A program made the translations under genes and the position numbers. 64,000 bases of DNA, from the NCBI GenBank assembly GCA_964415355.1, contig CAYPYS010000001.1:215399-279398 (forward strand). The letters are read 5' to 3'. This document shows, piece after piece, positions 837 to 26,381 of the stretch. Each line of letters starts with the position of its first letter. Position 1 is the stretch's first letter. A model generated the notes under the pieces. The model made no database searches and was not told where the DNA came from. It was given only the letters and a program-made list of their open reading frames with translations. Origin of the DNA: an uncultured Planctomycetia bacterium (GTDB lineage: Bacteria; Omnitrophota; Gorgyraeia; Gorgyraeales; Gorgyraeaceae).

Positions 837-873
837 TAACTTTACATTTCAACAACGTTAAAGTGTAAAGTTA
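837..873. repeat. PIE copy 1 (37-bp imperfect palindrome TAACTTTACATTTCAACAACGTTAAAGTGTAAAGTTA)
   Basis: Read directly. It lies between the ychF-like stop (871-873, TAA = rc of the element's terminal TTA) and the purH start (819). The arms TAACTTTACA and TGTAAAGTTA are complementary. Confidence 0.9.
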
Positions 874-2986: not shown

Positions 2987-4063
2987 TCAACCGATGAGCT
3001 TAGCCAGCGAGAACAACGGCATGAACATCGATATGACAATAAAACCTACCACAAGGCCCATAAACACTATAAGTATTGGTTCCAATAGGGCGGTGAGCCC
3101 GGTTATCGCAACGTCCACTTCTTCCTCAAAATTATCAGCGATCTGAACAAGCATCTTATCCAGCTGTCCAGTCTCTTCGCCTATATTTATCATCTTTGTG
3201 ACAAGCTGAGGAAAGGCCTTGCTAGCCTCCATCGGCCCTGACACGCTCTCCCCCTCTTTTATGCTGTCACGCAACTGCATCACTGCGCGCCCCATAAATT
3301 CATTACCCACGATATCGCGTACAGTCTGCAGCGCGTTTAATATCGGCACGCCGCTCGAAAGCAATGTCCCGAGCGTCCTCGAAAACCTGGCGACTGCAAC
3401 CTGATGTATAAGATTTCCTATTACAGGAAGCTTTAGTTTAAATTTGTCAACAACTGCTTTCCTGTCGGGACTTCTCAGTAAAAGTTTATACAGCAAAATG
3501 AATGCAACCGGGACAAGCGGAAGCAGATACCAGAATTTCCTGATAATATTGCTTGTAGTTATAAGTATCTTTGTCGGGAGCGGCAACGCGCCACCCAACT
3601 CTGAAAACATATTGGTGAACGTCGGGATCACAAACACCATGAGCATTATAAGTATAAGGACAGCTACCGTGAGCACAAAGGCGGGATACATAAGAGCTGA
3701 CTTTATCTTGTCCTTTAGCTTCTGATTCTTATCCAGAAATTCAGAGAGCCTCCTGAGGATGCCCTCTAACATGCCGCCGACCTCTCCTGCTTTTATCATA
3801 TTTACATAAAATTCTGGAAATACACCTGGAAAATGAGAAAGCGCCTCTGAAAAATTTGTTCCGCTTTCTACTTCTCCGGCTAAATCACTGATTATATCCT
3901 TCAAGGTGCCGGTTTCCAATTGATCATGAAGTGTCCTAAGCGCTTTTACGAGAGGCAGGCCTGCTGCTATGAGAGTGGAAAGCTGTTTCGTGAATACAAC
4001 GAGAGATTTTGTGCTGACGCGTTTCTTAGGATTTAAGAATGAGAGGTATTTGGTGAGATCCAT
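2987..4063 (-). CDS. gspF: Type II secretion system / type IV pilus platform protein GspF/PilC family
   Basis: 358 aa polytopic protein. ...LVVFTKQLSTLIAAGLPLVKALRTL..., ...FSRTLGTLLSSGVPILNALQTV... and the C-terminal ...GLTALLEPILIVFMGLVVG... are the typical duplicated GspF domains. Confidence 0.8.
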   Translation of the reverse strand: MDLTKYLSFLNPKKRVSTKSLVVFTKQLSTLIAAGLPLVKALRTLHDQLETGTLKDIISDLAGEVESGTNFSEALSHFPGVFPEFYVNMIKAGEVGGMLEGILRRLSEFLDKNQKLKDKIKSALMYPAFVLTVAVLILIMLMVFVIPTFTNMFSELGGALPLPTKILITTSNIIRKFWYLLPLVPVAFILLYKLLLRSPDRKAVVDKFKLKLPVIGNLIHQVAVARFSRTLGTLLSSGVPILNALQTVRDIVGNEFMGRAVMQLRDSIKEGESVSGPMEASKAFPQLVTKMINIGEETGQLDKMLVQIADNFEEEVDVAITGLTALLEPILIVFMGLVVGFIVISMFMPLFSLAKLIG

Positions 4064-4071
4064 TACCTGTG

Positions 4072-5223
4072 CTACCGAGCTATTAAATCGTCAACTTCTA
4101 TTTTATAGCCATCCTTCATATGTTTTATATCGCAGGCAGAGATCCTATCTCGGACCTGAATCACTTCTATAGAGCCAACCGCAAGACCACCTTTATGGAC
4201 ATCGAAGTATGTGCCTACGTCAATGCCATCCCGCCTGCCCAGGTCTATAACAACAAAATCATGCTCCCTGTTTATCGTAATTATCCTCCCCTTTAAATAA
4301 GAGGAAGAATTGGTTATCTTCTCGAGAGGCGACGTGCGCGTTCTGGTCGTAGGCCGCGAAGAATATTTCCCTTCTACAAAAATAGGCGGCAGCTCGACTT
4401 CAGCAGGCGCCTGATAAGTCTCAGCCCGGATATCGTCTACGCCCATTTTAGTTTTATGACTAGCGAAAGCTACCTTAAGCCTCTCTATCTGATCCTCTTT
4501 TTCTGCGAGGAGTTTATCAAATTTGCCAATTGCTCCTTCGAATTCTTCCAGCTTTGCTCTTAAAAGGCGATTCTCAGCCTTCACTTCCTCAAACTCCTGT
4601 ATTCCTTCTTCGCCCCTGCTTTTCTCTTCTAATAAATCCATGCTCAATGCCTCTGCGACCTGACCCGAGTCAGCAATCTTCTGTTCTAATATAAAATTTT
4701 CTTTTTCAAGCTTTGAAAGTTTTATGCTAAAATCCATATTTTCTGCCTTTAGCTTCTCCATCTCGGAATTCTTTGGCTCGAGTAAACCCATCAGCCTTTT
4801 CAGTTCCACTTCCAGCGAAACCTTCTCTTTCAAAAGCTTAGCGACAAATCTATCCGATTCCATTTCCTTTAGCCTCTTCTCAACAAAAAACTTACCCTTC
4901 TTGACCCTCACGAGTTCCTTGTCCAGATCATCCTTTTCCTTCAGAAGCTCCTTGTATTCTGACTTAAGATCCTCGTTTCGAGACTCTAAAATACCGAGTT
5001 CCTTCTTTACTGCATCAAGTTTTGCCTCTAATTCAGCATTCTTTCTCCTGGAAACAGTAATCTCCCGATTCTGCCTCTCTAGAGTAGTCTTGAAAAGAGT
5101 CTCTAAATCCACAAAATCACCGTAAAGCTTTTCTTTGGACACGAAAAACCATCCGGCGCTGAAACTACTTAGTATAACAAGCGCCACTAATATCCAAAGT
5201 ATCGAACGCAAAGTTCTATCCAT
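4072..5223 (-). CDS. Membrane-anchored long coiled-coil protein with a C-terminal beta-rich domain (MreC-like/pilus-assembly-like); function unknown
   Basis: 383 aa. The N-terminal TM is ILWILVALVILSSFSAGWFFV. About 250 aa of E/K/L-rich heptad sequence follow. The C-terminus ...FVVIDLGRRDGIDVGTYFDVHKGGLAVGSIEVIQVRDRISACDI... ends the protein. The stop is 8 nt before the gspF start, which suggests the same operon. Confidence 0.45.
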   Translation of the reverse strand: MDRTLRSILWILVALVILSSFSAGWFFVSKEKLYGDFVDLETLFKTTLERQNREITVSRRKNAELEAKLDAVKKELGILESRNEDLKSEYKELLKEKDDLDKELVRVKKGKFFVEKRLKEMESDRFVAKLLKEKVSLEVELKRLMGLLEPKNSEMEKLKAENMDFSIKLSKLEKENFILEQKIADSGQVAEALSMDLLEEKSRGEEGIQEFEEVKAENRLLRAKLEEFEGAIGKFDKLLAEKEDQIERLKVAFASHKTKMGVDDIRAETYQAPAEVELPPIFVEGKYSSRPTTRTRTSPLEKITNSSSYLKGRIITINREHDFVVIDLGRRDGIDVGTYFDVHKGGLAVGSIEVIQVRDRISACDIKHMKDGYKIEVDDLIAR

Positions 5224-5248: not shown

Positions 5249-5285
5249 TAACTTTACATTTTAACATTGTTGAAATGTAAAGTTA
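5249..5285. repeat. PIE copy 3 (TAACTTTACATTTTAACATTGTTGAAATGTAAAGTTA)
   Basis: Read directly. The RND gene stop (5283-5285) lies in its right end. The coiled-coil gene start (5223) is 25 nt beyond its left end. Confidence 0.9.
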
Positions 5286-8200
5286 GGCGGGATGGTTCCG
5301 GGATTTCACTTTTATTATACCATAAATCCTGTTTTGAACAAATAATATTAATTGCATTGGATTAAAGCTTCTTCTGAGATCATCGAAGATCAAATAAAGG
5401 CTGGGAATTAAAAATAATGTGAGGACGGTGGAAGAGATAAGCCCCCCTATGACAGTTATCGCCAAAGGAGACCATAGATTAGCTGACTCGCTCCTGTCAA
5501 ATGCCATTGGCAAAAGCCCCAGGATAGTCGTAGAGGTAGTCATTACTATAGGCCTGAAGCGGTCTTCTCCTGCCTCCAGCACTGACTTTAAAATAGTCCC
5601 TCGTTTCCTTTTTTCTCTCGTCTTAAGCCTTTCCATTCTAGGAAGATGGAAAAGCGGGCCCCTTTTCTTTCTCCCTCTTAAAAAATTAATCCTGTCCACC
5701 AGGACAATGGAATTATTCACGACGATACCGGCCAGCATAATCGCACCTATTATAACTCCGCGGCTGATGGGTTTTTTCGTGATCTCAAGCGCCAAAACCA
5801 CCCCGATCACTGCCAGCGGAACCGCGATCATTATAACAAAAGGCTGCACATATGACTCGAAGAGGGACGCCAGCACAAGGTATACCAAAAATATCGTTAT
5901 CCATAAAACACCTGTGGGAAAGGCCCATAATTCCTTCTCGCTCTCCTTCAATCTTTCATAATCTCCGCCTATCCTATAATAATAATCCCTTGGGAATGTC
6001 ATGTCGGATAGATTCGACTTTATCCTCTTCTCCGCATCCACAAGCGTGCCCTTTGTAACAAGAGCCGTAATGTGCACGACCCTCATCTTATTTTTTCTTA
6101 CTATCTCACTCGAGCCTATCTGAGGATTAAACTCTGCCACCTGCTCAAGTATCAGAGGATCTCTGTCTTTCGAAAAAAGTATTAATTTTCTTAGATCATC
6201 GAGGCGCTCCCTGTCTTCTTTTCTTAGACGCGAAATAGTCTCTATCTCTCTCGCTTCCGTATGATATAATGTCGCTCTCAAGCCCCTTATCTCAGTATGA
6301 AGCGTCGTCGCTATGTCTCTGGTCGTCAAACCGAGCATGGCTGCCCTTTCTTTGTCGACTACGACGCCCCATTCCGGCCTGCCGCTGATCCTGGACATCC
6401 TGATATCTTCAAAGCCCTGCATTGCGCCTAGCCGCGTCGCAATCGAGACTGAAAGCTCCCTCAATACGTCATAATCATACCCATAAAGATCTACTACCAT
6501 CTCTTTCAAACCCTTTTCCTCTATTTCAGAAAAATAGATAAAACCCCCTCTGTATTTTTCTTCGACTGAGTGGGCGACATTCCGGATATCCTCTATGATG
6601 ACCTTTGTAGAACGCTGCCTCTGCATAAGAGGCAGAAGTTTTATATATATCTTCCCTGACCACGGCTCCACGCGTGAGGTAAAAGTCTTTATTTCCGGGA
6701 GCTCATCCAGCAACACCTCTATCTCCTTCACCATCTGGTCAGTCACATCGAGCTTTGCGCCAGGCTCCAGCTCGACAAAAATAGTAAATCTTCCCTCCTC
6801 TGTACCTATCATAAATTCCCTGTCCAAGAAAAATCCGCGTAACAAGACCAGCGCGAACAAGAAGAATGCTATCCCTGTAGCTATATATCTAAACCTCAGC
6901 CCGTAACCAAGAAATCTCCGATAATAAATCTTCAATCTCGTGAGCGTGTATTTTTTAAACATTAGTTTTTCGGATTCTTTCAGTCGAGGCATTATCTTCA
7001 TGCGGTCCGACAGCATGGGCACGAGCGTCAATGCTACGAACAGCGAGCTTAGGAGCGAATATGTCACTGTCAATGACAGCCCGCTCCACAGCATTCGCGT
7101 GGCCTTGTTTACAAAGACAAAGGGCAGGAATACGATTATAGTTGTAACAGTAGATGCGAATATCGCGAGGCCCACCTCGGATGTCCCGCCAACAACTGCG
7201 CTGGTGTATTTAGCCTTCCAGTCTTTTTTAGAATAATCGATAGCGCTTTTTTTCTTTTGAATATTATCGAGCACGACTATAGAATTGTCGACTAGCATGC
7301 CTATACCGAGCGCAAGGCCGCTGAGTGTCATAACGTTTATAGTTATCTTGTAAAAATACATCAGCGCAAACGTGAGCATGACTGATATGGGTATAGAAAC
7401 GGCTATGATCGAAGTCACATAGGGATCTCTCAAGAAGAGAAACAGTATCACAATGGCCAGGATCGCGCCGTACAGAAGAGACGTCCTAACAGCGACTATC
7501 GCCTCTTTTATCGCCTCAGATTTATTCAAAGTCGACTTTATAAATATATCCTTGTCCAGCGTCCTTTTTAAGCGGTTAAGCTCTTTCTGTATGCTCGATA
7601 TGACCTGGATTGTATTAGCGGTCGACTCTTTTTGAATATATATAGAGACGACGGGCTCTATGTCTGTCCTCGCGTAACTCGTGGGTTCCAAAAAAGAATC
7701 CCTCACCTTTGCGATTTCTTTAAGCCTGACTATGGAGCCATGAGCAGTGGTGGCGATGCCCAGATTTTTTATATCCTCGACAGACTGGAATTCTCCTATT
7801 ATCCTTACCAGAAATTTATTCTTGCCGTGCTTAATATCTCCTGCGAGCAAATTCAGATTGTTTACGCCAAGAAGATTGACAACCTGCTCAATAGGGACAT
7901 TGTACTGATGCAGTTTGTTCTTATCTATCTCGACGAGAATCTTTCGCTCCCTGCCCCCGTATATATCCACATTCGCAACGCCTTCCACGCGCAGCACTCG
8001 TTCTTTCACCTGTTCGTCTACGACTTTTCGCAACATCTCCGGCGAATAATTCTTTCCGGTGACTGCCAGGACCAGAATAGGCATGTCGGATTCTTTATAC
8101 TGTGCTATTATCGGTTTCTCTATCTCCTGCGGGAGTTTTTCTCTTATCTTTGAAAATTTTTCTCTAACTTCGAGCGCGGCAAAATCCATATTAGTGCCTG

Positions 8201-8492
8201 GCTCAAATTCAAGCCAGATCCTGGACTCTCCTGATTTTGAAGTGGAATAGATATTTTCCAGATGACTTACAGAGCTGACCGCCTCCTCAATGGGCTTAGT
8301 TACCATGACCTCTACTTCCTGCGGAGGCATGCCGCCTCTTATCCCGACGATAATACTTATGTCGCCGTAGGCTATGTTCGGCTTTAGATCAACTGGAAGG
8401 TTTAATAGAGACACGAATCCCACCAGCAATATGCCAATAAAAAGCATAGCTATGGTAACCGGCCTCCTGACTGAAAAACCTGATAGGCTCAT
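5283..8492 (-). CDS. Efflux RND transporter permease subunit (AcrB/MdtC/CzcA superfamily), second of a tandem pair
   Basis: 1069 aa. It starts MSLSGFSVRRPVTIAMLFIGILLVGFVSLLNLPVDLKPNI. It shows the 12-TM RND architecture with two large periplasmic loops, and internal motifs such as ...VLDNIVVVENI-like VVLDNIQKKK and AVPLAVIGVVLALEITKKPIS. Confidence 0.85.
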   Translation of the reverse strand: MSLSGFSVRRPVTIAMLFIGILLVGFVSLLNLPVDLKPNIAYGDISIIVGIRGGMPPQEVEVMVTKPIEEAVSSVSHLENIYSTSKSGESRIWLEFEPGTNMDFAALEVREKFSKIREKLPQEIEKPIIAQYKESDMPILVLAVTGKNYSPEMLRKVVDEQVKERVLRVEGVANVDIYGGRERKILVEIDKNKLHQYNVPIEQVVNLLGVNNLNLLAGDIKHGKNKFLVRIIGEFQSVEDIKNLGIATTAHGSIVRLKEIAKVRDSFLEPTSYARTDIEPVVSIYIQKESTANTIQVISSIQKELNRLKRTLDKDIFIKSTLNKSEAIKEAIVAVRTSLLYGAILAIVILFLFLRDPYVTSIIAVSIPISVMLTFALMYFYKITINVMTLSGLALGIGMLVDNSIVVLDNIQKKKSAIDYSKKDWKAKYTSAVVGGTSEVGLAIFASTVTTIIVFLPFVFVNKATRMLWSGLSLTVTYSLLSSLFVALTLVPMLSDRMKIMPRLKESEKLMFKKYTLTRLKIYYRRFLGYGLRFRYIATGIAFFLFALVLLRGFFLDREFMIGTEEGRFTIFVELEPGAKLDVTDQMVKEIEVLLDELPEIKTFTSRVEPWSGKIYIKLLPLMQRQRSTKVIIEDIRNVAHSVEEKYRGGFIYFSEIEEKGLKEMVVDLYGYDYDVLRELSVSIATRLGAMQGFEDIRMSRISGRPEWGVVVDKERAAMLGLTTRDIATTLHTEIRGLRATLYHTEAREIETISRLRKEDRERLDDLRKLILFSKDRDPLILEQVAEFNPQIGSSEIVRKNKMRVVHITALVTKGTLVDAEKRIKSNLSDMTFPRDYYYRIGGDYERLKESEKELWAFPTGVLWITIFLVYLVLASLFESYVQPFVIMIAVPLAVIGVVLALEITKKPISRGVIIGAIMLAGIVVNNSIVLVDRINFLRGRKKRGPLFHLPRMERLKTREKRKRGTILKSVLEAGEDRFRPIVMTTSTTILGLLPMAFDRSESANLWSPLAITVIGGLISSTVLTLFLIPSLYLIFDDLRRSFNPMQLILFVQNRIYGIIKVKSRNHPA

Positions 8493-8504: not shown

Positions 8505-8550
8505 TCATTCCCGCGAAGCTTGTCCCCGTGAAAACGGGGAGCGGGAATCC
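8505..8550. repeat. Nested hairpin GTCATTCCCGCGAAGCTTG-TCCCCGTGAAAACGGGGA-GCGGGAATCC (family B) in the 5' leader of RND gene 5283..8492
   Basis: Read directly. The outer stem is ATTCCCGC/GCGGGAAT. The inner stem is TCCCCG/CGGGGA with a TGAAAA loop. Confidence 0.8.
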
Positions 8551-8560
8551 ATATCTCGCG

Positions 8561-8597
8561 TAAGTATACATTTTAACGTTGTTGAAATGTATACTTA
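8561..8597. repeat. PIE copy 4a, GTATAC-stem variant (TAAGTATACATTTTAACGTTGTTGAAATGTATACTTA), first of a tandem pair
   Basis: Read directly. Both arms carry GTATAC in place of CTTTAC/GTAAAG, a compensatory double change. Confidence 0.9.
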
Positions 8598-8599
8598 CG

Positions 8600-8636
8600 T
8601 AACTTTACATTTTAACAATGTTAAAGTGTAAAGTTA
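8600..8636. repeat. PIE copy 4b (TAACTTTACATTTTAACAATGTTAAAGTGTAAAGTTA), second of a tandem pair
   Basis: Read directly. The stop of RND gene 8634..12437 (TAA) lies in its right end. Confidence 0.9.
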
Positions 8637-11600
8637 TTTTAATGCGTACCACCTGCCTGGGCCGAGAGGGCCGTGGGCTTCGAGCATACCGCGATCCACA
8701 AGCTCCTTCAGGTCCCTGGCTGCAGTAGGCACAGATATATTGAAACGCTCAGCGTATTCTTTGCGCGTGATTTTCTTTACTTCTTTTAAAAGCTCTAAAA
8801 GCTCTTCTTGTCTCTTTTTGAGAAGCGGCAGTTCTTCTGGCGCTTGAGGAGTGGGCTCAGGTTCTGGCTCGGGAGGCGCGGGTTCTGGCGGAGCAGGTTC
8901 TGACAGAGCAGGTTCAGGTGGTGCAGGTGGCGGCGGTGGAGGCAATTCTATTTTTGGCTCTTTTGGCGGCTTTGGCGTCTCTGGTTCCTTTGGCAACTCT
9001 TTCTTTTCTTGCTCTTGCGCTCTTATCTGAGGTTTGTATTCTTCTGCCTCTTTCAGTGATTCCGGCTCCTTTGGCTCTTCTTTTGGTTTCTCTTTCTTCT
9101 TAATACTAAAAGGTTTTACTTTGACCTTGAACTCCCTCGCCTCATCCGCCGATAATTTAATATCCCGATCCCTTTTAACTACTGGCTTTGCAATTTTTTT
9201 TGCTGCAGTCCTTGGCGGCTCAGCCTTTTTAACCGGCATAAGTTTAAAAACCGGCTTTGGCCCAAAAATACCGGCCACGACCAAATATATGCAAGGTATA
9301 ACAAAAAGTGTCAATATCGTTGAAACCAAAAGTCCGCCCATGACCGTTATCGCCATTGGACTCTGTATCTCCGCCCCTTCTGCAATGCCTGCTGCCAGCG
9401 GCAAAAGCCCCAGCACCGTGGTCATTGTCGTCATGAGAATCGGCCTGAGTCGCATCTTGCCTGACTCTATAACCGCTTCCACGAGCTCGACGCCTTTAGC
9501 GCGCAGCCTGTTTATTGAATCAATCAAAATAATACCGTTATTGACAACGATACCTCCAAGGATTATCACGCCGAGAATCACAACGACGCTGACAGGGGTA
9601 CCTGTAATAAATAACGCGAACAACGCTCCGATCGCAGAAAGCGGCAGCGTAAACATAATAATAAACGGCTGCCACAATGACTCGAATTGCGAAGCCATTA
9701 TCATGTAGACCAAGAGCATCGAGAGAAGCAGCGCAAACCTCAGCGACTTAAAAGATTCGCTCATCTGCTGACTTTCCCCCGAGAGATCAATGGTAAAAAG
9801 CTTCTCTGAGTCTCCCATCTTGTGCGACACCACGATCTTTTCCCGCTCAATATCCTCTATCATGGCCTCTATATCCATGATCACTTTATCCAGCGCCCTG
9901 TCAGCGATGTTGGCAGTCAGAAGAATAACCCTCTGTTGATCCAGCCTCTTTATCTCGCTAGGCCCTACGCCTTGACTGATATAGGCGACCTCTGACAGCG
10001 GCACCTCGATCCCGAGCGGAGAATGCACAAGCACGTTTCTGATTTGCGAGAGGCGCGACCGGCTTTCCTTCCTCAGTCTGACCCTCACATCTATCTCGTC
10101 TCCTTCTTCCTTAAACTTCGTCGCGACCACTCCTTTTATAGCAGTGTGCGCGGCCTGAGCTATGGTTCCCGTCGACAGATTGTAAAGCGATGCCTTGTCC
10201 TTAAGCACATTGACCTTTGTCTCTGGCGAAGGACTGATGAGACTCGTGCGGATACCGTATATACCTTTAACGCTAGCGAGTTTTGCTTTGACATACCTGG
10301 AAAGTTCTTCTATCTTATCAAGGTTTTTTCCTTTTATTTCAATGACAATAGGCGCGCTGCCCTGCAGGGCTGTCTTAAAAATACTCTCCTGTAGAATATA
10401 TTCTACCTGCGCTCCCTGCAGATCCAGTCTGTCTAATTCGCGTTTCAATTTTTCTATTGTCTTAGATGTCGGAGGCTGGCCTTTTCCTTTCTCCAGCGTC
10501 ACTATTATCTGAGATTGGTTGGACCCCAATGTTTCAACGCCTTGAGAATAGTCTTTTCTCGCGCTCGAGCCAATATTAACAGCCACGCCTTCAACGCCCC
10601 CTGTTCCAAAAAGTACTTTTTCTATCTTTGCCACAGCACTGTCCGTGGCCTCCAGCTTTGTGCCGCTAGGCATGTTGACTTTCATGATAAATTCGCGCTG
10701 GTCTATCTTTGGCATAAATTCCTTGTCCAGCAAGGCAAAAAGCCACACGCTCACGGCAAAAATTATAAAAATAAGGATCAGAAAAGCCACTCTGAATCTT
10801 AAAATCGTAGGTATGAGTCTTGAATAAACAGGCTTGAGGCCGAATGTAAATTCGCTCTTTTCTTCTCTGGATGCAGCGTTCGAATTCGAAATAGATCTCT
10901 GGGCGCGAAGACCGCCAACGCCGGTCAGCCGCGGGATCAAAGAAAGTGCCACAACTAAAGACGCGATCAGCGAAAACGTGACAGTAAAGGCGAGCTCTCT
11001 AAACAGCTGTCCCGCGACGCCAACGACAAATATCATCGGCAAAAATACTGCGACAGTAGTGAGCGTCGACGAGAAAATAGCTCCCGACATCTCGCTGGCC
11101 CCGGACTTACTCGCGTCTTTTATATTTACGTCTTTGCCTTTTTGGAGATGGGCGTAGATATTTTCAATTACAACTATTGCGTTGTCCACGAGCATGCCTA
11201 TACCGAGGGCCAGCCCGCCAAGAGAAAGCATGTTCAGCGAAATACCGTTGAAATACATGAGGCAGAACGCGACCATGATGGATATCGGCATTGAAAACGC
11301 GACTATTAAAGAAGCCCTGACCCTTCTTATAAAAATAAAAAGCACTAAAAATGCGAGAGCGCCTCCGATAATCGCAGCCTGCATGACCCCGCGTATTGAT
11401 TTTTTAATCAGGAGCGACTGGTCATATATTATGTCTATTTCCATTCCTTCCGGCAGATCTGCTTCTATTTCCTTCAGCCTCGCTCTTACTTTTTGGGCTA
11501 CAAGCAGGATGTTAACGCCCGCTTGTTTCTGCACAGCCACTGAAACGTTTTCCCTGCCATTGTAACGCGAGATGCTCGTGCGGTCTTTAAATGTGTCCTT

Positions 11601-12437
11601 GAGTTCCGCTATATCCTTAAGGTATATCAGTCTTTCTCTTTCCTTTATATCCTGAGCTTGTCGGGGAAGGATCGCGCGTAGCCCTGAGTCCTCGATCTCC
11701 CTGTCTACAACGGTCTCCTCTATATCCGAAAGCACCTGGAATTCCCCCATTGTCCTTATGAGGTATTCGTAAAAATGCTCCTCTATTGTGCCTGCTGGAT
11801 AATTTATATTAGACGACCGCAGAGCCTCAACGACCTTTGTGATGGAAATATTGGAAGCGCGCAGCCTTCCTTCGTCTATGGAGACAAGTATTTCGCGCTC
11901 CAGTCCGCCGGCAAGGTTACACGACGCCACGCCGTCGACCTTTTCAAGTTCGTCTTTGATAAATTTTCTCGAGAGCCGCAGGAGTTCTGAAGGAGACTTG
12001 TCGCCTCTGACGCTCAACGTAAGGACAGGCAGCTCAAACGGGTTGAATTTCATTACTATCGGGTCTGAAGAACCTATAGGAAGTCGTTCTTTTATGAGGT
12101 CTATTTTTTCGCTCACGCCGAGAGAGGCAAAATCCATGCTCGTGCCCCAGCCGAATTCACCGGTGACGATCGAAACGCCTTCCTTCGAGATAGAGCTTAT
12201 GCGTTTCAGATTACTGACTGTGCCGACCGCTTCTTCGATAATCTTCGTAATCAGTGTCTCGACTTCTTCTGGCGCTGCGTTTTCGTATGTGGTAACTACT
12301 GTGAGTTGCGGATAGGTGATAGAGGGGAAGAGTTCCCTAGGAAGGCGCGTAAGCGAGATCAACCCTAATATCAGCGCCCCCAAAAAGAACATGGAGATCG
12401 TAACAGGCCGATTTACTGAAAATTCTGGAAGTCGCAT
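8634..12437 (-). CDS. Efflux RND transporter permease subunit fused to a C-terminal ~230-aa extension (K/E-rich, then a Pro-rich low-complexity segment, then a winged-helix HTH)
   Basis: 1267 aa. The RND core runs to about aa 1035. Then comes a ...KEKPKEEPKEPESLKEAEEYKPQIRAQEQEKKELPKEPETPKPPKEPKIELPPPPPPAPPEPALSEPAPPEPAPPEPEPEPTPQAPEE linker. The C-terminus is ...ITRKEYAERFNISVPTAARDLKELVDRGMLEAHGPLGPGRWYALK, a DeoR/Fic-C-type wHTH. Confidence 0.8.
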   Translation of the reverse strand: MRLPEFSVNRPVTISMFFLGALILGLISLTRLPRELFPSITYPQLTVVTTYENAAPEEVETLITKIIEEAVGTVSNLKRISSISKEGVSIVTGEFGWGTSMDFASLGVSEKIDLIKERLPIGSSDPIVMKFNPFELPVLTLSVRGDKSPSELLRLSRKFIKDELEKVDGVASCNLAGGLEREILVSIDEGRLRASNISITKVVEALRSSNINYPAGTIEEHFYEYLIRTMGEFQVLSDIEETVVDREIEDSGLRAILPRQAQDIKERERLIYLKDIAELKDTFKDRTSISRYNGRENVSVAVQKQAGVNILLVAQKVRARLKEIEADLPEGMEIDIIYDQSLLIKKSIRGVMQAAIIGGALAFLVLFIFIRRVRASLIVAFSMPISIMVAFCLMYFNGISLNMLSLGGLALGIGMLVDNAIVVIENIYAHLQKGKDVNIKDASKSGASEMSGAIFSSTLTTVAVFLPMIFVVGVAGQLFRELAFTVTFSLIASLVVALSLIPRLTGVGGLRAQRSISNSNAASREEKSEFTFGLKPVYSRLIPTILRFRVAFLILIFIIFAVSVWLFALLDKEFMPKIDQREFIMKVNMPSGTKLEATDSAVAKIEKVLFGTGGVEGVAVNIGSSARKDYSQGVETLGSNQSQIIVTLEKGKGQPPTSKTIEKLKRELDRLDLQGAQVEYILQESIFKTALQGSAPIVIEIKGKNLDKIEELSRYVKAKLASVKGIYGIRTSLISPSPETKVNVLKDKASLYNLSTGTIAQAAHTAIKGVVATKFKEEGDEIDVRVRLRKESRSRLSQIRNVLVHSPLGIEVPLSEVAYISQGVGPSEIKRLDQQRVILLTANIADRALDKVIMDIEAMIEDIEREKIVVSHKMGDSEKLFTIDLSGESQQMSESFKSLRFALLLSMLLVYMIMASQFESLWQPFIIMFTLPLSAIGALFALFITGTPVSVVVILGVIILGGIVVNNGIILIDSINRLRAKGVELVEAVIESGKMRLRPILMTTMTTVLGLLPLAAGIAEGAEIQSPMAITVMGGLLVSTILTLFVIPCIYLVVAGIFGPKPVFKLMPVKKAEPPRTAAKKIAKPVVKRDRDIKLSADEAREFKVKVKPFSIKKKEKPKEEPKEPESLKEAEEYKPQIRAQEQEKKELPKEPETPKPPKEPKIELPPPPPPAPPEPALSEPAPPEPAPPEPEPEPTPQAPEELPLLKKRQEELLELLKEVKKITRKEYAERFNISVPTAARDLKELVDRGMLEAHGPLGPGRWYALK

Positions 12438-12459: not shown

Positions 12460-12496
12460 TAACTTTACATTTCAACAACGTTAAAATGTAAACTTA
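12460..12496. repeat. PIE copy 5 (TAACTTTACATTTCAACAACGTTAAAATGTAAACTTA)
   Basis: Read directly. It lies between the adaptor-gene stop (12504-12506, 8 nt away) and the RND start (12437). GGAG is 10 nt upstream of that ATG. Confidence 0.9.
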
Positions 12497-13723: not shown

Positions 13724-13760
13724 TAAGTATACATTTCAACAATGTTAAAATGTATACTTA
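13724..13760. repeat. PIE copy 6, GTATAC-stem variant (TAAGTATACATTTCAACAATGTTAAAATGTATACTTA)
   Basis: Read directly. The TolC-like gene stop (13758-13760) lies in its right end. Confidence 0.9.
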
Positions 13761-15593
13761 GGGCTTTGGGTGTGAGGCCAATCGGAAACTTCCGTCATCC
13801 AGAAACAAAGTATAGCCCGTAGCCCTGTTCAACTTTGCCAATGCCTGGTACAAGCTGCCGACCGCTTCTATATAAAATGACTTCTCGTCTGTAAGACTGA
13901 TGCGCGCCTGCATAAGCGCTGAATACGGTATTTCATTGAGCCCTGTTCGCGCTTTCGCGACCTTGAGTTCTTCTTCCCGATAATTCACCTTGTCCAGGTT
14001 TGCCCTTGCCTGTATCAAGCCTTTCTCGTATCCATAATAAGCATCTTTTATCTCTCTTATAATCGAGGCCTTTAGTTTCTTCAGCTCTTCCTTTGCCTTC
14101 TTAAATCCTATGCTGGCAGACTTTTTCTCAGAAAAACTCTGGAGGTTATCGAGGATCCCTATTTCAACAGACTGGCTCGCTGACTCTGTCCTGGTGCTTT
14201 CGCCGTGTTTCTCGCTCGTCTTGTCCTCTGTATAACCAGCGGATATTGTGTTGCCGCCAAGAGGCTTTGTCACTTTTAACCCAAGATACCAATCTTGATC
14301 CAATTCCAGCGTCTCTGTTTCAAACGCGCCGCCGGATTTTCCGTAAGAACCAGAGAGATCCACCTTAAACTGATCTTTGCTCTTCGCGATCTTCTGCCCA
14401 TAATCGTTAAAATCCACTATGTGCTTCTTTGCCTTGAAATCAGGCCTGTAACCAAACGCCAGATCCATGCACTGGTTCAATGTAACATCGACCTCTATCG
14501 CCTCAAGATAAGTAAGCTCTCCTAAGATCAAAACTTCACCCATATCGTCAGAGTCTTCGATGTTCATTGCCTGCGCGAGAGTCAATTTTGCCATGTCCAG
14601 CTCATTCTCGCTCGATGAGACCTGGTAGGCGATCTGCTTCATCTGTGAATGGACCTGCAAGAATTCTGTCTTTGTGCTCAAGCCCAGGTCAAACCTTTTC
14701 TTTGCCATCTCAAATATAGCCTCTGCGTCTTTTAATAGCTCACGCTGTTCCTTGAGGTTTATGCTCTTTACAATATATGAATAAAATGCTGTCTCTACGT
14801 CCATCCTCAAATCCTGCAATACCCTGTCATAATTTTCCTTTGAGGCCTTCATATTAGACATTGCCTGATCTACCGCATATTTAAGCCGCCAGCCATAATA
14901 CAGCGGGTGCTCGAACTTTATTTTGTACTCCTTGTCTGTGAAATCCTGGGTCGTGCCAGTAGTCTTACCTGTGGTCTCCATGTAATTCAAGCTCGCGGAC
15001 GGGTACAGCGCGCGGCGCGCCTCTCTGATCTTCAGCTCTGAGAGCTCTATTTCTTCCTTGGCTATGTCAGTGGATAAATTATTCTCAAGCGCGATATCTA
15101 TGGCCTGACCAATGTGCAGTTCCTCGGGCAGCGAGGCAGCAAACTCCGGCTCTGGTTCCCTGCTTTCAGTATAGTCCTCGCCAGGCTCTTTTTTAGGACT
15201 GGTCGCAAAGAATATCACAGGCACATCCAGCCATAGTTCTTCGGCGCCCAACTGGGCTGGAAAAGGCTTGAATCTATCTAATTTAAAAGTTGCCCTGAGA
15301 CAGATCTTGTCTAGATTTTTATTGCCTGAGGACTCAGAAACATAGATATCCCTTAGCTCACCCTTAGGAGAAAGAAGCATCTTAAGTTTCATTTCGCCCC
15401 TGGAATTAGACACAATATACCTCTCAGGCTTTCCTATGGCCTCATTTATATCCTTTGAAAGCCCAATTATATACTGTGTTATTGCTTCAATATTAGACGA
15501 AGATACTTGGTAGGCAAAAGATACAGTGCTGCATTGCGCTATAACTATAATAAATACAATAAGATACAATAATTTTCTATGCCTTGTAATCAT
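13758..15593 (-). CDS. Outer membrane efflux protein (TolC/OprM family) with an extra N-terminal ~130-aa domain
   Basis: 611 aa. It has a signal peptide (LLYLIVFIIVIAQCSTVSFA). Two TolC-like repeats with coiled-coil segments are present (...LYPSASLNYMETTGKT..., ...LTDEKSFYIEAVGSLYQALAKLNRATGY). It is the first gene of the tolC-MFP-RND-RND operon. Confidence 0.7.
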   Translation of the reverse strand: MITRHRKLLYLIVFIIVIAQCSTVSFAYQVSSSNIEAITQYIIGLSKDINEAIGKPERYIVSNSRGEMKLKMLLSPKGELRDIYVSESSGNKNLDKICLRATFKLDRFKPFPAQLGAEELWLDVPVIFFATSPKKEPGEDYTESREPEPEFAASLPEELHIGQAIDIALENNLSTDIAKEEIELSELKIREARRALYPSASLNYMETTGKTTGTTQDFTDKEYKIKFEHPLYYGWRLKYAVDQAMSNMKASKENYDRVLQDLRMDVETAFYSYIVKSINLKEQRELLKDAEAIFEMAKKRFDLGLSTKTEFLQVHSQMKQIAYQVSSSENELDMAKLTLAQAMNIEDSDDMGEVLILGELTYLEAIEVDVTLNQCMDLAFGYRPDFKAKKHIVDFNDYGQKIAKSKDQFKVDLSGSYGKSGGAFETETLELDQDWYLGLKVTKPLGGNTISAGYTEDKTSEKHGESTRTESASQSVEIGILDNLQSFSEKKSASIGFKKAKEELKKLKASIIREIKDAYYGYEKGLIQARANLDKVNYREEELKVAKARTGLNEIPYSALMQARISLTDEKSFYIEAVGSLYQALAKLNRATGYTLFLDDGSFRLASHPKP

Positions 15594-15897
15594 GTCTTAC
15601 CCTCGTGAAAAAGAAGTATACCATATGATTATATAATTGTCAATATTGGGGTTACAAAAATTTTGATACAGTTATGATACGGTTGGTTTGTTGGTGAGTC
15701 CCTTAGCATAATGAAGATATGCTAAGGCATGCTTAGGTCAGTCTTCGGAGGCCTCTTTATTTTTTGCGGACATGGTGCTTAACTTTACACTTTAACGTTG
15801 TTGAAATGTAAAGTTAAGCGAGCAAAAAATAAAAAGGAGAGAAAGCCGCTTCGCTGGGAGCGGCTGAGCGTCCTACGAAGACTGGCCTAAGCATGTC
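15594..15897. promoter_or_regulatory. Structured 304-bp intergenic region upstream of the efflux operon, with long inverted repeats bracketing a PIE copy
   Basis: Small hairpins: CTTAGCATAATGAAGATATGCTAAGG (~15700-15727), CTAAGGCATGCTTAGG (~15722-15738) and CCTAAGCATGTCTTAGG (~15885-15901). The left arm GGCATGCTTAGGTCAGTCTTCGGAGGCC (~15726-15753) is nearly the reverse complement of CGTCCTACGAAGACTGGCCTAAGCATG (~15869-15895). Inner inverted A/T runs are CTCTTTATTTTTTGCGG and GAGCAAAAAATAAAAAGGAG. A PIE sits at the centre. Confidence 0.6.
15780..15816. repeat. PIE copy 7 (TAACTTTACACTTTAACGTTGTTGAAATGTAAAGTTA; centre in flipped orientation)
   Basis: Read directly. The central 17-mer CTTTAACGTTGTTGAAA is the reverse complement of the copy-1 centre. 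Confidence 0.9.
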
Positions 15898-17139
15898 TTA
15901 GGCGTTTACGAAGACATGCCTTATTACAATACTGGCTGCACCAAGGGCAACTGAGTTCGTGCCGAGCTGGGCAGGTATTATCTTTACGATATTGGCTGGT
16001 TCCTCAAAAGCCCACTTCCTGACTGTCCTTCTCAAGGGCTCGAGAAAGAGGCTGCCAGACTTCTCTACGCCGCCTCCTATGATCACTATCTCTGGGTTAA
16101 ATAGGTTCACTAGATAGGCTACTCTAACGCCTAGATTAACAGCCGCGTCTTCCAAGAGGTCGATCGCAAGCGTGTCACCTGACTTTGCTGCCTCTATTAT
16201 ATTATCAATGCTCAACTTGTTCAAACTGCTGGCTGACTTGTCAGAAATAGTGGACTTTACACCCTTTTCTTCTATTAGCTTCCTGGCTTGGCTCACAAGA
16301 CCCAGGTCCAATCCCAACGGGAGCAAAAACGACAGATTCTTAGATAGTTTCAGGTAATCACCGTTTCTAGGATAATTTATGCGCAGCTCACCCGCGCTGC
16401 CGCTTGCTCCAGAGTATACGCCTCCTTTAATAATAATCCCACTCCCAACATCAGAATACATATAGATAACATCCTCTATATCTATCGGAAGCGCGTACAT
16501 CTTTTCTCCAAAAGCAGCGTAAGTAGCATCATTGCCAAGAAAACACGGCACGCCATACCTTTGTGAAATAAGGTCTTTTATTGTAATATAACTTGTGCGT
16601 ATGCCATGCTTGGTCGAGTCTCTTACAGTGCCCAGGGCATCGTCTATAACACCGCCTATTCCTATGCCGACTCCCTTGATCTTGTCTTTCTTAACATCCT
16701 TTTTGTTAATCAATGTCTCTATCAGATCCATGGACTTCTCTATAATCCTGTCCATGCTTTCTTTTTCCCTGTTAGTCTCGACCCTGGCTATTACCTTACC
16801 AGAAAGATCCGTGACAATGCCCGCCATGCTCGCGCCGCTTGCACCCATATGGCCGAGGTCAATGCCTATCGCATAACCGTTTCCGCTATTTAACTTTACC
16901 AGAGTCGGCTTCCTGCCGCCAGAAGAAGCCTCCATGCCGCTCTCTATAACAAGCCCATCCTTAATATGAGTATTTATGTAATTCGATACTGTCACTATAT
17001 TCAGGTCTGTTATCTTAGACACCTCTGCCCTGGTAATAGGCCCATTGCGACGGATCAGATCCAGTATGGAAAAATTTTTCTTCTCATGGTCCGACAATAA
17101 ATACGTTTCAAAAAGCCTGTTCTTATTAGCAGTTGGCAT
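15898..17139 (-). CDS. ROK-family transcriptional regulator (NagC/Mlc/XylR-like; N-terminal HTH plus sugar-kinase fold)
   Basis: 413 aa. HTH: ...FSILDLIRRNGPITRAEVSKITDLNIVTVSNYINTHIKDGLV. ROK/glucokinase motifs: ...GIGIGGVIDDALGTV..., ...GGVYSGASGSAGELRI... and a C-terminal ...IIGGGVEKSG. Confidence 0.75.
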   Translation of the reverse strand: MPTANKNRLFETYLLSDHEKKNFSILDLIRRNGPITRAEVSKITDLNIVTVSNYINTHIKDGLVIESGMEASSGGRKPTLVKLNSGNGYAIGIDLGHMGASGASMAGIVTDLSGKVIARVETNREKESMDRIIEKSMDLIETLINKKDVKKDKIKGVGIGIGGVIDDALGTVRDSTKHGIRTSYITIKDLISQRYGVPCFLGNDATYAAFGEKMYALPIDIEDVIYMYSDVGSGIIIKGGVYSGASGSAGELRINYPRNGDYLKLSKNLSFLLPLGLDLGLVSQARKLIEEKGVKSTISDKSASSLNKLSIDNIIEAAKSGDTLAIDLLEDAAVNLGVRVAYLVNLFNPEIVIIGGGVEKSGSLFLEPLRRTVRKWAFEEPANIVKIIPAQLGTNSVALGAASIVIRHVFVNA

Positions 17140-17168: not shown

Positions 17169-17205
17169 TAACTTTACACTTTAACGTTGTTGAAATGTAA
17201 AGTTA
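17169..17205. repeat. PIE copy 8 (TAACTTTACACTTTAACGTTGTTGAAATGTAAAGTTA)
   Basis: Read directly. The stop of ORF 17203.. (TAA) lies in its right end. Confidence 0.9.
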
Positions 17206-19982: not shown

Positions 19983-20019
19983 TAAGTTTACATTTCAACA
20001 TTGTTGAAATGTAAACTTA
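19983..20019. repeat. PIE copy 9 (TAAGTTTACATTTCAACATTGTTGAAATGTAAACTTA; G..C paired stem variant)
   Basis: Read directly. It is followed by a GC-rich segment CGTCGCCCGCCGCGCTACCTGCGCAGCCGCGCC (20021-20053). Confidence 0.9.
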
Positions 20020-21282: not shown

Positions 21283-21319
21283 TAACTTTACACTTCAACA
21301 TTGTTGAAATGTAAAGTTA
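21283..21319. repeat. PIE copy 10 (TAACTTTACACTTCAACATTGTTGAAATGTAAAGTTA), flanked by CCCC/GGG extending the palindrome
   Basis: Read directly. A second hairpin GGTCTGGG...TGCCGACAGGCA...CCCAGACC follows immediately (21321-21356). Confidence 0.9.
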
Positions 21320-24486: not shown

Positions 24487-24522
24487 AACTTTACATTTCA
24501 ACAACGTTAAAGTGTAAACTTA
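24486..24522. repeat. PIE copy 11 (TAACTTTACATTTCAACAACGTTAAAGTGTAAACTTA)
   Basis: Read directly. It directly abuts the GH start codon. The ABC permease start (25375) is on the other side, so this is not a stop-overlapping copy. Confidence 0.9.
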
Positions 24523-25409: not shown

Positions 25410-25446
25410 TAACTTTACATTTCAACAACGTTAAAGTGTAAACTTA
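25410..25446. repeat. PIE copy 12 (TAACTTTACATTTCAACAACGTTAAAGTGTAAACTTA; identical to copy 11)
   Basis: Read directly. The stop of permease 25444..26331 lies in its right end. Confidence 0.9.
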
Positions 25447-26344: not shown

Positions 26345-26381
26345 TAAGTTTACACTTTAACGTTGTTGAAATGTAAACTTA
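26345..26381. repeat. PIE copy 13 (TAAGTTTACACTTTAACGTTGTTGAAATGTAAACTTA)
   Basis: Read directly. A family-C element follows immediately. Confidence 0.9.

Follow-up and report, generated by a model that had tools for sequence, protein, structure and literature searches.

Bacteria of Candidatus Omnitrophota carry a gene in which an RND permease is fused, through a proline-rich linker, to a C-terminal winged HTH (wHTH) domain. This fusion, hereafter RNDw, is genuine, conserved across the phylum, and under selection. For its function we propose, with a rough probability of 0.45, a membrane-tethered autoregulator, in which the wHTH of the pump would bind half-sites at the promoter of its own operon and feed back on its transcription. 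The window, that is, the whole stretch of 64,000 nucleotides analyzed here, contains RNDw together with its operon, and Table 1 summarizes the features discussed below.

Table 1. Features of the RNDw locus, with positions counted from the first letter of the window
Feature	Coordinates	Strand	Evidence or description
RNDw gene (RND permease-linker-wHTH fusion)	8634..12437	-	single ORF, 1267 aa including stop codon
RND transporter core (AcrB/AcrD/AcrF-type), aa 5-1054	9276..12425	-	PF00873 ACR_tran, E 9.2e-239
Linker, aa 1057-1199 (143 aa), cytoplasmic	8841..9269	-	25% Pro, 18% Lys, 17% Glu
C-terminal wHTH, aa 1200-1267 (68 aa)	8637..8840 (HTH_DeoR match 8679..8813)	-	PF08220
RND2, second RND permease, 1069 aa, without wHTH	5283..8492	-	PF00873, E 1.4e-225
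Membrane-fusion (periplasmic adaptor) protein, 393 aa	12504..13685	-	PF16576 and PF13437
Outer-membrane factor, 611 aa, N-terminal TonB_C domain, first gene of the operon	13758..15593	-	PF02321, E 1.1e-46
Best sigma-70-like operon promoter	15615..15643	-	TTGACA, 17 nt, TG-TATACT; top scan match
Candidate operator, tandem direct repeat AACCGTATCA-T-AACTGTATCA	15664..15684	-	20 nt upstream of the -35 box
ROK-family protein, 413 aa, N-terminal HTH_24	15898..17139	-	PF00480, E 1.4e-38; PF13412

Conservation of the fusion gene

The RNDw ORF is free of stop codons from the RND core through the Pro-rich stretch into the 'KEYAERFNISVPTAARDLKELVDRGMLEAH' sequence. A sequence-only reading of this DNA had described an RND permease with a Pro-rich linker and a C-terminal DeoR-like wHTH, and the single ORF together with the Pfam matches confirmed this architecture. 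The span considered in that reading, 8637..9330, encodes residues 1037-1267 of RNDw, which run from the last TM helix through the linker to the end of the wHTH. In the HMM search, the HTH_DeoR model (PF08220, aa 1209-1253), which has a gathering score of 21, gave 29.9 bits with the whole protein and 35.7 bits with the tail alone.

The search for the same fusion in relatives resulted in 113 of the 120 best RNDw homologs with the same C-terminal wHTH. The fusion family comprises more than 110 homologs, with 49-87% identity and the same three-part architecture. Additionally, we considered as informative those species genomes whose locus provided enough 5' sequence (n=76), and the wHTH was in frame with the RND core in all 76 species-representative loci. 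All informatively named genomes with the fusion belong to Candidatus Omnitrophota. The architecture had been regarded as non-standard; this holds for RND pumps generally, but not within Omnitrophota, where the fusion is the rule (76/76).

The DNA of the window was assembled from a metagenome, and an error of assembly or annotation, either a frameshift or a missed stop, might have joined a small wHTH gene to the permease. This explanation is effectively refuted, and we consider its probability to be close to nil. A protein identical to RNDw was called on an independent public assembly (ENA ERZ23499040, scaffold L001), which, along with the 113 homologs and the 76 loci, makes a frameshift or a missed stop implausible. 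The in-frame fusion recurs in more than 110 clusters of independent studies, and the linker sequences are wholly different among homologs, yet the fusion is in frame throughout. Furthermore, a separate wHTH gene inside RNDw was searched for, and no in-frame start codon with a Shine-Dalgarno sequence was found.

Domain architecture of RNDw

The match of the RNDw core to PF00873 spans model positions 3-1020 of 1021, and the core aligns end to end with the solved chains of CmeB, MdtB, and AcrB. With the NCBIfam model RND_permease_2, RNDw scored 638 bits, which is under the subfamily cutoff of 1250. The proton-relay residues were compared with D407, D408, K940, and R971 of the HAE1 pump AcrB. The equivalents of D408 and K940 are Asn in RNDw and likewise in RND2; TM4 of RNDw reads VDN where CmeB has VDD, TM10 reads VVNN where AdeB has SAKN, and the RLRPI motif is kept. 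In the established RND topology, the C-terminus after TM12 is cytoplasmic.

The linker is a long disordered cytoplasmic tether for the wHTH. It is hypervariable among the 113 homologs, with 11% identity to the query (10.9%) and 64% gaps, and its length among homologs ranges from 26 to 301 aa (median 68). The wHTH and the RND core are equally conserved, with 62.5% and 62.8% identity to the query, respectively.

The wHTH appears competent for DNA binding, as judged from four features taken together. Its HTH_DeoR match is above the threshold. The AlphaFold2 model is confident (pLDDT 90) and predicts helices H1-H2-H3 plus a beta-hairpin wing. The structures that match it best are those of wHTH proteins bound to DNA, namely AspA-DNA, AdcR/MarR, and a ROK repressor on its operator. 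Finally, the invariant residues R10, R26, S36, T39, A40, A41, R42, D43, G57, P58, G62, R63, and Y65 (numbered within the 68-aa domain) fall in the recognition helix (S-x-x-T-A-A-R-D) and the wing (G-P-x-G-P-G-R-W/Y-Y).

Relatives of the wHTH

In the sequence-only reading, the wHTH had been called DeoR/Fic-C-like. By sequence, its nearest solved relative in the PDB is a Fic family protein, matched at the C-terminus (8cil, E 0.002). This structure is the sole basis of the Fic link, since Pfam gave no Fic domain in P0210, P0211, and P0219, and the profile matches of about 350 aa were rejected as Fic proteins. AlbA_2 and HATPase_c_4 proteins whose C-terminus is a wHTH are among the profile matches with E-values from 1e-11 to 1e-13, and DIP2311 (3lmm) is among the fold matches. 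The RND-linked wHTHs group tightly in a clade of their own, which is marked by the motif PTAARDLK...GPLGPGRWY.

A close relative of the wHTH (78-79 bits) is also present in P0188 and P0189, where it is attached to a hydrophobic segment at the N-terminus; a long repeat-rich stretch (probably coiled-coil) comes next. This membrane-anchored architecture suggests that membrane tethering is intrinsic to the wHTH clade. As further fusion partners of the clade, only a few short or probably chimeric ORFs were retrieved besides these two proteins. P0121 (2918 aa), which ranked first among the matches, resembles a read-through chimera with an AlbA_2-type protein inside.

Operon and genomic neighborhood

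The genes of the operon are ordered as outer-membrane factor, adaptor, RNDw, and RND2. The TonB_C match of the outer-membrane factor (PF03544) scored 27.2 bits against a cutoff of 24.6, and its synteny is conserved, as is the arrangement of the adaptor gene beside RNDw. RND2, immediately downstream, is a paralog of RNDw with 36% identity; among loci that continue beyond RNDw, nearly all have RND2 next, either directly or with one or two small ORFs in between. In Candidatus Omnitrophota, this core tripartite RND pump has two inner-membrane subunits, the paralogs RNDw and RND2. The conserved housekeeping neighborhood suggests that the role of the pump is a core envelope function rather than drug resistance. 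The ROK gene adjoins the operon in some clades and is displaced or absent elsewhere. The Rfam scan of the window returned no families.

Half-sites at the operon promoter

The predicted operon promoter has 11 of 12 consensus matches and an extended -10 element, and it lies 22 nt upstream of the ATG of the outer-membrane-factor gene. The same hexamers are found in orthologous loci. The candidate operator of the window is a 21-bp sequence, AACCGTATCATAACTGTATCA. AACYGTATCA has just two matches in the 64 kb of the window, against an expectation of 0.16, and both are in this sequence.

The 10-bp half-site AACCGTATCA was found in two to eight strong copies near the start of the first gene in 11 of 11 independent loci with a readable promoter. 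These loci are the window (L001), L082, L084, L086, L088, L090, L091, L213, L214, L215, and L216, and the RNDw identity across them is 50-100%. The distance of the clusters from the first-gene start is at most ~300 bp in nine loci and at most ~500 bp in the other two, L090 and L216. In ten loci (~233 kb), 33 of the 38 strong half-sites sit near the start of the first operon gene, and the eleventh locus, L216, contributes seven more perfect copies. The scores of tandem sites were greater than 31, whereas the best site in loci without a tandem scored 19 or less.

The 10-mer itself is invariant across clades, as are S36, T39, R42, and D43 of the recognition helix. The spacing of the half-sites (10, 11, or 12 bp and irregular), their orientation (direct or inverted), and their position relative to the promoter all vary among clades. 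Even the clade with a divergent wing (GPAAIGRYY, P0108/L216) has the same AACCGTATCA half-site. A search for covariation between wHTH variants and half-sites was negative; the two are jointly invariant. The tandem site of the window's clade lies upstream of the -35 box, unlike the spacer and -10 placements of other clades. In clades whose half-sites occupy the spacer, cover the -10 box, or lie further downstream, their position suggests that binding would repress transcription.

Judged by its placement in the sequenced loci, the half-site cluster tracks the pump operon and not the neighboring ROK regulator. In L091 and L213, the ROK gene is found 2.5 kb downstream, and in L215 it comes after other genes; L090 and L214 have no ROK gene within 10 kb. 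In each of these loci, the cluster is still at the outer-membrane-factor promoter, and none was found beside the displaced ROK genes of L091, L213, and L215. A different gene order, RNDw-RND2-adaptor, characterizes a clade that keeps the wHTH and has no motif nearby. In L092, which has this RNDw-first order, no half-site motif was found within 10 kb, and ~20 L092-like loci had none in the examined 2 kb upstream or 6 kb downstream. The promoters of this clade were searched for, and none was located.

The flanking 35-bp palindromes, one of which overlaps the RNDw stop codon, were considered as an operator and rejected. They have 17 copies in the window, at nearly every intergenic site of its first 35 kb, and they are absent from 80 orthologous loci of other species. 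These palindromes are a lineage-specific REP-like repeat.

Occurrence of the motif elsewhere

The motif was expected to be specific to the RND operon, and a metagenome scan contradicted this expectation. Among the matches listed, 12 of the 71 low-GC matches to the tandem motif fall in Omnitrophota parA-parB loci, for the most part a short distance ahead of parA, and another 34 were unclassified. The same 20-mer also occurs on high-GC contigs in unrelated contexts, for instance, next to AbiEi_2 genes. Other occurrences are coding coincidences or 12-bp minisatellites beside AlbA_2/HATPase_c_4/wHTH genes. Besides RNDw, no member of the wHTH clade was found in the window or in 120 motif-bearing metagenome stretches.

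Proposed mechanism and alternatives

We infer that the wHTH, as a putative sequence-specific DNA-binding domain on a long disordered cytoplasmic tether, would bind the half-site motif and regulate its own operon while still attached to the membrane. The tethered wHTHs of the assembled pump would bind the 10-bp half-sites as independent monomers, and the half-sites bound would be those clustered at the operon's own promoter. Operon transcription would thereby receive feedback from the quantity of pump in the membrane and possibly from how far the pump is assembled. Monomeric domains on flexible tethers are favored over a rigid dimer because the spacing and orientation of the half-sites vary and the 10-mer is invariant. 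The idea that the fusion couples the pump to transcription, raised in the sequence-only reading, gains circumstantial support from the promoter clusters in 11 of 11 loci. For CadC, a membrane-integrated regulator able to find its chromosomal targets, the target search and DNA-dependent clustering have been shown (PMC6320335, PMC7888679).

The tandem motif is not exclusive to the pump operon, and a soluble global regulator is therefore a serious alternative, although we consider it rather unlikely. A separate soluble protein (the ROK protein, an OmpR/PhoB-type response regulator, or a global factor) would then bind AACCGTATCA, and the wHTH would act on DNA in another way, at other sites or with low specificity, holding the nucleoid or the transcribing locus at the membrane. 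The parA-parB and unclassified low-GC sites among the matches listed are in line with this, as are the HTH-bearing ROK gene within 10 kb in 9 of 11 loci and the RNDw-first clade, where the wHTH has no motif nearby. Tandem direct repeats with 11-bp spacing that abut the -35 box are typical sites of OmpR/PhoB-type response regulators, and the 11-bp-spaced direct repeats at the -35 box would fit such a protein. However, the motif remains with the operon, and not beside ROK, where the ROK gene is displaced or absent, and the variable spacing and orientation of the half-sites would be unusual for dimeric ROK or tandem OmpR-type binding. The wHTH is also the sole DNA-binding domain encoded within the operon in 11 of 11 loci, and the lack of another wHTH-clade member in the window and the 120 metagenome stretches argues in the same direction. 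Alternatively, the wHTH might no longer bind nucleic acids and might serve as a protein-protein interaction or assembly module, for instance, for the recruitment of a cytoplasmic partner or for pump clusters; an interaction module had also been proposed in the sequence-only reading. Some winged-helix domains make protein contacts, the ESCRT-II winged helices are among the fold matches, and the net charge of the wHTH is only +2. Nevertheless, we find this quite improbable, as the invariant residues are those expected to be conserved in a DNA-reading wHTH (S-x-x-TAARD in the recognition helix and the Arg at the tip of the wing), the DeoR HTH model matches the domain above its cutoff, and the promoter of the operon has a conserved cis-element. 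Another scenario, in which the tail is cut within the disordered linker to release a free wHTH and the pump is a membrane store or sensor, seems very unlikely. A long exposed linker rich in Pro, Lys, and Glu would be an easy protease substrate, and CadC, for which activation by proteolytic cleavage has been described, offers a precedent (PMC11484849). The linker, however, has no conserved cleavage motif and is hypervariable in sequence and length, and a freed 68-aa monomeric wHTH without a dimerization element would probably be a weak DNA binder.

The AACCGTATCA clusters at both the pump operon and the parA-parB promoter also raise the doubtful prospect, which we rate as improbable, that the wHTH binds at both and, beyond local autoregulation, is a membrane anchor for specific chromosomal sites. 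The parA-parB genes are usually near the replication origin. If this were true, defined chromosome loci would be physically tied to envelope-spanning pumps, and the envelope machinery would be linked with chromosome organization or segregation in these ultra-small cells. A transporter would then do the same job as Noc- and RacA-like DNA-membrane tethers.

Comparison with known systems

RND pumps are among the best-studied bacterial transporters, and to our knowledge, their regulation has always been described via separate soluble or two-component regulators. In the literature searched, nothing relevant was found on RND-HTH fusions or on efflux in Omnitrophota. If the proposed autoregulation is true, it would represent a new feedback wiring, in which a membrane-inserted product reads and controls its own promoter, and a polytopic transporter would join the few membrane-integrated transcription factors, namely ToxR, CadC, and relatives. 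Uncultivated phyla seldom yield a prediction this precise, which names a domain of 68 aa, a half-site of 10 bp, and defined promoters; checking it in vitro or in E. coli requires no cultivation of Omnitrophota.

In ToxR and CadC, as in RNDw, a winged-helix DNA-binding domain is covalently joined to an inner-membrane protein via a disordered cytoplasmic linker. RNDw holds the DNA-binding domain and the membrane-spanning segments in one polypeptide, with the wHTH after TM12, and by analogy, it may be expected to act on promoter DNA while anchored to the membrane. However, the wHTH of ToxR and CadC is N-terminal and of the OmpR type, and it is combined with one TM helix and a periplasmic sensor, whereas RNDw has a C-terminal DeoR-like wHTH and a 12-TM transporter. 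The DNA-binding domains share no homology beyond the general fold, and the Pfam search of RNDw listed no OmpR-type (Trans_reg_C) match. RNDw further differs from ToxR and CadC in being itself a product of its putative target operon.

In the MdtABC and MuxABC systems, too, the operon encodes one adaptor and a pair of neighboring RND permease paralogs, and MdtB is among the best solved-structure matches of RNDw. MdtB and MdtC originated by duplication (PMC7015380). The two pairs are not orthologous, as RNDw scored 390.9 bits against 1584 for the NCBIfam MdtB(/MuxB) model and 361.5 against 1774 for MdtC; in addition, the Omnitrophota pair has Asn at the AcrB D408/K940 positions, and one of its subunits carries a wHTH. 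We know of no described MdtB, MdtC, or other characterized RND pump with a wHTH.

The wHTHs of the DeoR, Fic-C, and AlbA_2/HATPase_c_4 (DIP2311-like) proteins have in common with that of RNDw an S-x-x-T-x-x-R-D-L helix 3 and a G-x-G-R-x-x-Y wing. In DeoR regulators, an N-terminal HTH is followed by a sugar-phosphate-binding effector domain, whereas the HTH of RNDw forms its last 68 residues. The DeoR C-terminal effector/oligomerization domain was not detected in RNDw by Pfam or NCBIfam; with the DeoR-like DNA-binding domain only, RNDw is therefore not a member of the DeoR regulator family. The partner of its wHTH is a transporter rather than an enzyme or a sensor.

If the autoregulation model is right, RNDw would have the same function as AcrR (TetR-type) and MexR, which is the feedback on an RND operon from promoter sites. 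AcrR and MexR are separate soluble proteins that sense pump substrates, whereas the regulator in Omnitrophota would be a part of the pump polypeptide, and the copy number of the pump itself would be the signal.

Architecture and conservation of the fusion gene

The sequence-only reading had proposed that an RND permease, a Pro-rich linker and a C-terminal winged helix-turn-helix (wHTH) lie in one ORF, here called RNDw, and this was borne out. Pfam places a complete RND permease (PF00873) at aa 5-1054 with an E value of 9.2e-239, and a DeoR-like helix-turn-helix (PF08220) at aa 1209-1253, the extreme C-terminus; both parts are also supported by NCBIfam. The region first flagged spans the last TM helix, the linker and the helix-turn-helix. 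PF08220 scored 29.9 bits in the whole protein, and the HMM search of the isolated 71-aa tail, suggested as a check, gave 35.7 bits against a gathering score of 21. The linker has 143 aa (25% Pro, 18% Lys, 17% Glu). No in-frame start codon with a ribosome-binding site for a separate wHTH protein was found in the RNDw gene, and an identical protein was called on the independent public assembly ENA ERZ23499040.

The same fusion was also sought in relatives. The best 120 homologues from a whole-protein search share 49-87% identity with RNDw, nearly all are 1140-1280 aa long, and most carry a precomputed PF08220 match. Reading their C-termini recovered the domain in 113 of the 120, the exceptions being truncated sequences, with the consensus LNxRQxxLLExLKxxxKITRKEYAxxFxISVPTAARDLKELxDKGxLxAxGPLGPGRWYELK. 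In the full-length alignment, identity to the query was 62.5% for the wHTH and 62.8% for the RND core, so that the wHTH is, as judged from the alignment, as well conserved as the transporter core. The linker is hypervariable (10.9% identity, 64% gaps; 26-301 aa among homologues).

Additionally, one genome per species was scanned with the most conserved peptide; 90 relatives were found and 80 loci kept. The wHTH was in frame with the RND core in all 76 loci with enough upstream sequence, and the remaining four run off the contig end. An assembly or annotation artefact is ruled out by this conservation across homologues and species; the fusion is almost certainly genuine, and it is conserved and under purifying selection. 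All named members of the best 120 homologues come from Candidatus Omnitrophota, which is also named in all informative record titles among the species loci; two named genera among the relatives were checked and belong to it. A few MAGs are labeled Planctomycetia or Patescibacteria, which we take to be placeholders. In public records these proteins appear under the name 'efflux RND transporter permease subunit'; one is entered as 'DeoR family transcriptional regulator'. In one species-representative contig (L071), RNDw, a wHTH whose wing is truncated and RND2 share one open frame, 2352 aa from contig start to the next stop, owing perhaps to a frameshift or to secondary fusion of the two permeases. 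To our knowledge, the RND-wHTH fusion has not been described before, and no description was found in the searchable literature.

Coordinates of the features in the window and in orthologous or metagenome loci (L-numbers)
Feature	Locus	Position	Strand	Remark
RNDw ORF	window	8634..12437	minus	1267 aa, one uninterrupted frame
RND2	window	5283-8492
Outer-membrane factor, TolC-like	window	13758-15593	minus	N-terminal TonB_C, aa 60-128, 27.2 bits vs cut-off 24.6
383-aa protein	window	4072-5223	minus
PilC/T2SSF	window	2987-4063	minus
GC-rich hairpin	window	8507-8548
Candidate operator (tandem repeat)	window	15664..15684		20 nt from -35 box
Nested inverted repeat	window	15722-15901		180-bp insertion
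Palindrome sites 1-8	window	838-872, 2509-2532, 5250-5284, 8561-8598, 8601-8635, 12467-12490, 13731-13754, 15781-15815
Palindrome sites 9-16	window	17170-17204, 19989-20013, 21284-21318, 24493-24516, 25417-25440, 26351-26374, 28274-28297, 34737-34760
RNDw-RND2 frame	L071	1-7056
82-85-aa protein gene	L088; L090; L166	4985-5233; 5971-6228; 910-1155
82-85-aa protein gene, metagenome	L097, L098, L109, L112, L115, L125, L158, L159, L168
parA-parB motif loci	L094, L120, L130, L132, L141, L142, L161, L183, L184, L191, L202, L210			tandem AACCGTATCA
12-bp unit arrays	L181; L192; L208; L114; L175	6298-6470; 760-970; 1776-1985;;
High-GC 20-mer and box	L106, L113, L134, L139, L147; also L117, L152

Operon and neighborhood

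The conserved operon order is outer-membrane factor, adaptor, RNDw and RND2, a 36%-identical paralogue of RNDw without the wHTH. RND2 comes after RNDw in nearly all loci reaching past RNDw, directly or with two small ORFs between as in L090, and one clade is ordered RNDw-RND2-adaptor. The TonB_C domain of the outer-membrane factor is replaced by an AMIN domain in other clades (L090, L215); either is an unusual N-terminal addition to an outer-membrane efflux protein. The operon is surrounded by housekeeping genes (PilC, YchF, PurH, FolC, MnmE) in conserved synteny, which points to a core function rather than accessory resistance. In both permeases, Asn occupies the positions of AcrB D408 in TM4 (VDN for VDD) and K940 in TM10 (VVNN for SAKN), with the D407 and R971 equivalents retained; thus, the canonical HAE1 proton-relay salt bridge is altered in both subunits.

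Several further features were observed. RND2 harbors a highly basic cytoplasmic insertion of ~22 aa (GRKKRGPLFHLPRMERLKTREKRKR) between TM10 and TM11 (~aa 935-960), absent in RNDw. RND2 is directly followed downstream by the gene of a 383-aa protein, which lacks a significant Pfam domain and seems to be coiled-coil for the greater part of its length, and then by PilC/T2SSF; most loci in the clade of the window share this arrangement. In the distant loci L088, L090 and L092, a trio of FIST protein, histidine kinase and GGDEF response regulator adjoins the RND operon, on either side. The 141-bp gap between the RNDw gene and RND2 contains a GC-rich hairpin (ATTCCCGC ... CCCCGTGAAAACGGGG ... GCGGGAAT) that had no Rfam match, may serve as a terminator, attenuator or processing site, and adjoins two REP-like palindromes.

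These palindromes belong to a dispersed repeat of ~35 bp, AACTTTACA-N17-TGTAAAGTT with core ACATTTCAACAACGTTAAARTGTA, which gave 17 matches at 16 sites in the window (none expected; one palindromic site matches both strands). They lie at nearly every gene boundary of the first 35 kb, one copy overlapping the stop codon of the fusion gene. None of 80 orthologous loci from other species has the repeat, which therefore resembles a REP-like element specific to the lineage, and the copies flanking RNDw were dismissed as an operator. A larger nested inverted repeat encloses the copy between the ROK-family gene and the outer-membrane factor; its 35-nt arms are 86% complementary and separated by 110 nt, and there are further arms of 16 nt. 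This insertion is missing from the close relative L082; it may represent a MITE-like element or form a large hairpin.

The wHTH domain

The AlphaFold2 model, built from a 40-sequence alignment, is of high confidence (pLDDT 90) and has three helices followed by a beta-hairpin wing. Foldseek against PDB returned generic DNA-binding winged helices, among them AspA bound to centromere DNA, AdcR/MarR and an operator-bound ROK repressor. As for the earlier label 'DeoR/Fic-C-like', PF08220 makes the domain DeoR-like, and the nearest solved chain by sequence is the C-terminus of the Fic family protein 8cil (E 0.002). When 1.84 billion representatives were searched exhaustively with a profile, 183 matches at E 1e-10 or better resulted; those of ~350 aa gave no confirmation of a Fic domain. 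The close clade comprises RND C-termini and their fragments, plus two proteins (P0188, P0189) with an N-terminal hydrophobic segment, a long repeat-rich stretch, probably coiled-coil, and the wHTH; no second member is encoded in the 64-kb window. Remoter matches included small stand-alone proteins as well as AlbA_2/HATPase_c_4 proteins in which the wHTH is C-terminal. The invariant residues (R10, R26, S36, T39, A40, A41, R42, D43, G57, P58, G62, R63, Y65, numbered within the domain) map to the recognition helix and wing, and would be the positions expected of a DNA-reading wHTH.

A candidate operator at the operon promoter

The region from ROK to the outer-membrane factor was compared across orthologous loci. 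As a result, a tandem direct repeat, AACCGTATCA-N-AACYGTATCA, was found just upstream of a strong TTGACA-17-TATACT promoter. The window has only two matches to the 10-bp half-site, both in this repeat (0.16 expected). With a position weight matrix, true tandem sites scored >31, against ≤19 for the top site of each remaining locus.

The survey was extended to more distant loci with 10-kb flanks, giving 11 independent loci with a readable first-gene promoter. All 11 have 2-8 strong half-sites near the start of the first operon gene, within ~300 bp or less in nine and ~500 bp or less in L090 and L216. In ten of them (~233 kb), 33 of 38 strong half-sites lie there and two at the 3' end of RND2; the eleventh, L216, whose clade has a divergent wing, contributes seven perfect copies. 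Clusters also occur just 3' of RND2 in four further loci. Spacing (10, 11 or 12 bp, irregular) and orientation (direct or inverted) vary between clades. Position varies as well: the window's clade has its half-sites upstream of the -35 box, whereas those of L213, L214, L215 and L216 occupy the spacer, overlap the -10 box or lie downstream of that box. The RNDw-first clade keeps the wHTH, and no motif was found nearby, a point against binding of the motif by the wHTH.

Which protein binds the motif

As the most likely function, with a probability of about 0.45, we propose that the tethered wHTH binds DNA sequence-specifically at the membrane and so feeds back on its own pump operon; that it binds DNA of some kind is rather probable. 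Monomeric wHTH domains on flexible tethers, presented by the oligomeric pump, would engage the half-sites, which fits the joint invariance of half-site and recognition helix and the loose site geometry. In all 11 loci, the wHTH is the sole DNA-binding domain encoded inside the operon. The obvious rival is the ROK protein, which carries an HTH and neighbors the operon. However, ROK is separated from the operon in L091, L213 and L215 and was not found within 10 kb in L090 and L214; in all five, the motif cluster remains with the operon promoter, and no cluster adjoins ROK.

Since the tandem motif also occurs outside the RND operon, its binder may be a more global factor, or the wHTH may have several chromosomal targets. 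A metagenome scan gave at least 120 stretches, with 71 low-GC and 49 high-GC among the matches listed. Of these 71, 25 lie in the RND-locus neighborhood (some upstream of the gene for a conserved 82-aa membrane protein), 12 at parA-parB loci, mostly just upstream of parA, and 34 are unclassified. At the 12 listed parA-parB loci, the motif is 3-260 bp upstream of parA in eight, between parA and parB in two, just after parB in one and 1.3 kb away in one; every named homologue of the neighboring ParA comes from Omnitrophota. The 49 high-GC stretches listed have unrelated contexts (AbiEi_2 neighbors, coding repeats, minisatellites).

The gene for this membrane protein (82-85 aa, two predicted TM segments, no Pfam match) is located upstream of the RND locus and in some cases immediately follows a tRNA gene; the tandem motif precedes it by ~50 bp in many contigs, and the gene was not seen adjoining the operon in the window's own clade. 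Arrays of ~20 tandem 12-bp units (CAACCGTATCAT) directly beside genes for AlbA_2/HATPase_c_4 proteins with a C-terminal wHTH happen to match the Omnitrophota half-site; translated, these arrays give NRII-type 4-aa repeats, and they are probably coding repeats that have decayed. At high-GC loci, an identical tandem 20-mer and, after it, a conserved GAGCGAAAGCAGACTCCCCA box adjoin the genes of a ~340-aa protein family; the one member tested has an AbiEi_2 antitoxin domain (Pfam), and this is a separate system in other bacteria.

The RND-wHTH fusion offers a clear experimental handle. The two permease genes recall MdtBC-type pumps, which have two different permeases (PMC7015380), although RNDw and RND2 fall far under the NCBIfam equivalog thresholds for MdtB and MdtC. 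As work on CadC shows, chromosomal targets are accessible to membrane-integrated regulators (PMC6320335, PMC7888679). The fusion would combine two known kinds, RND pumps and membrane-integrated regulators.
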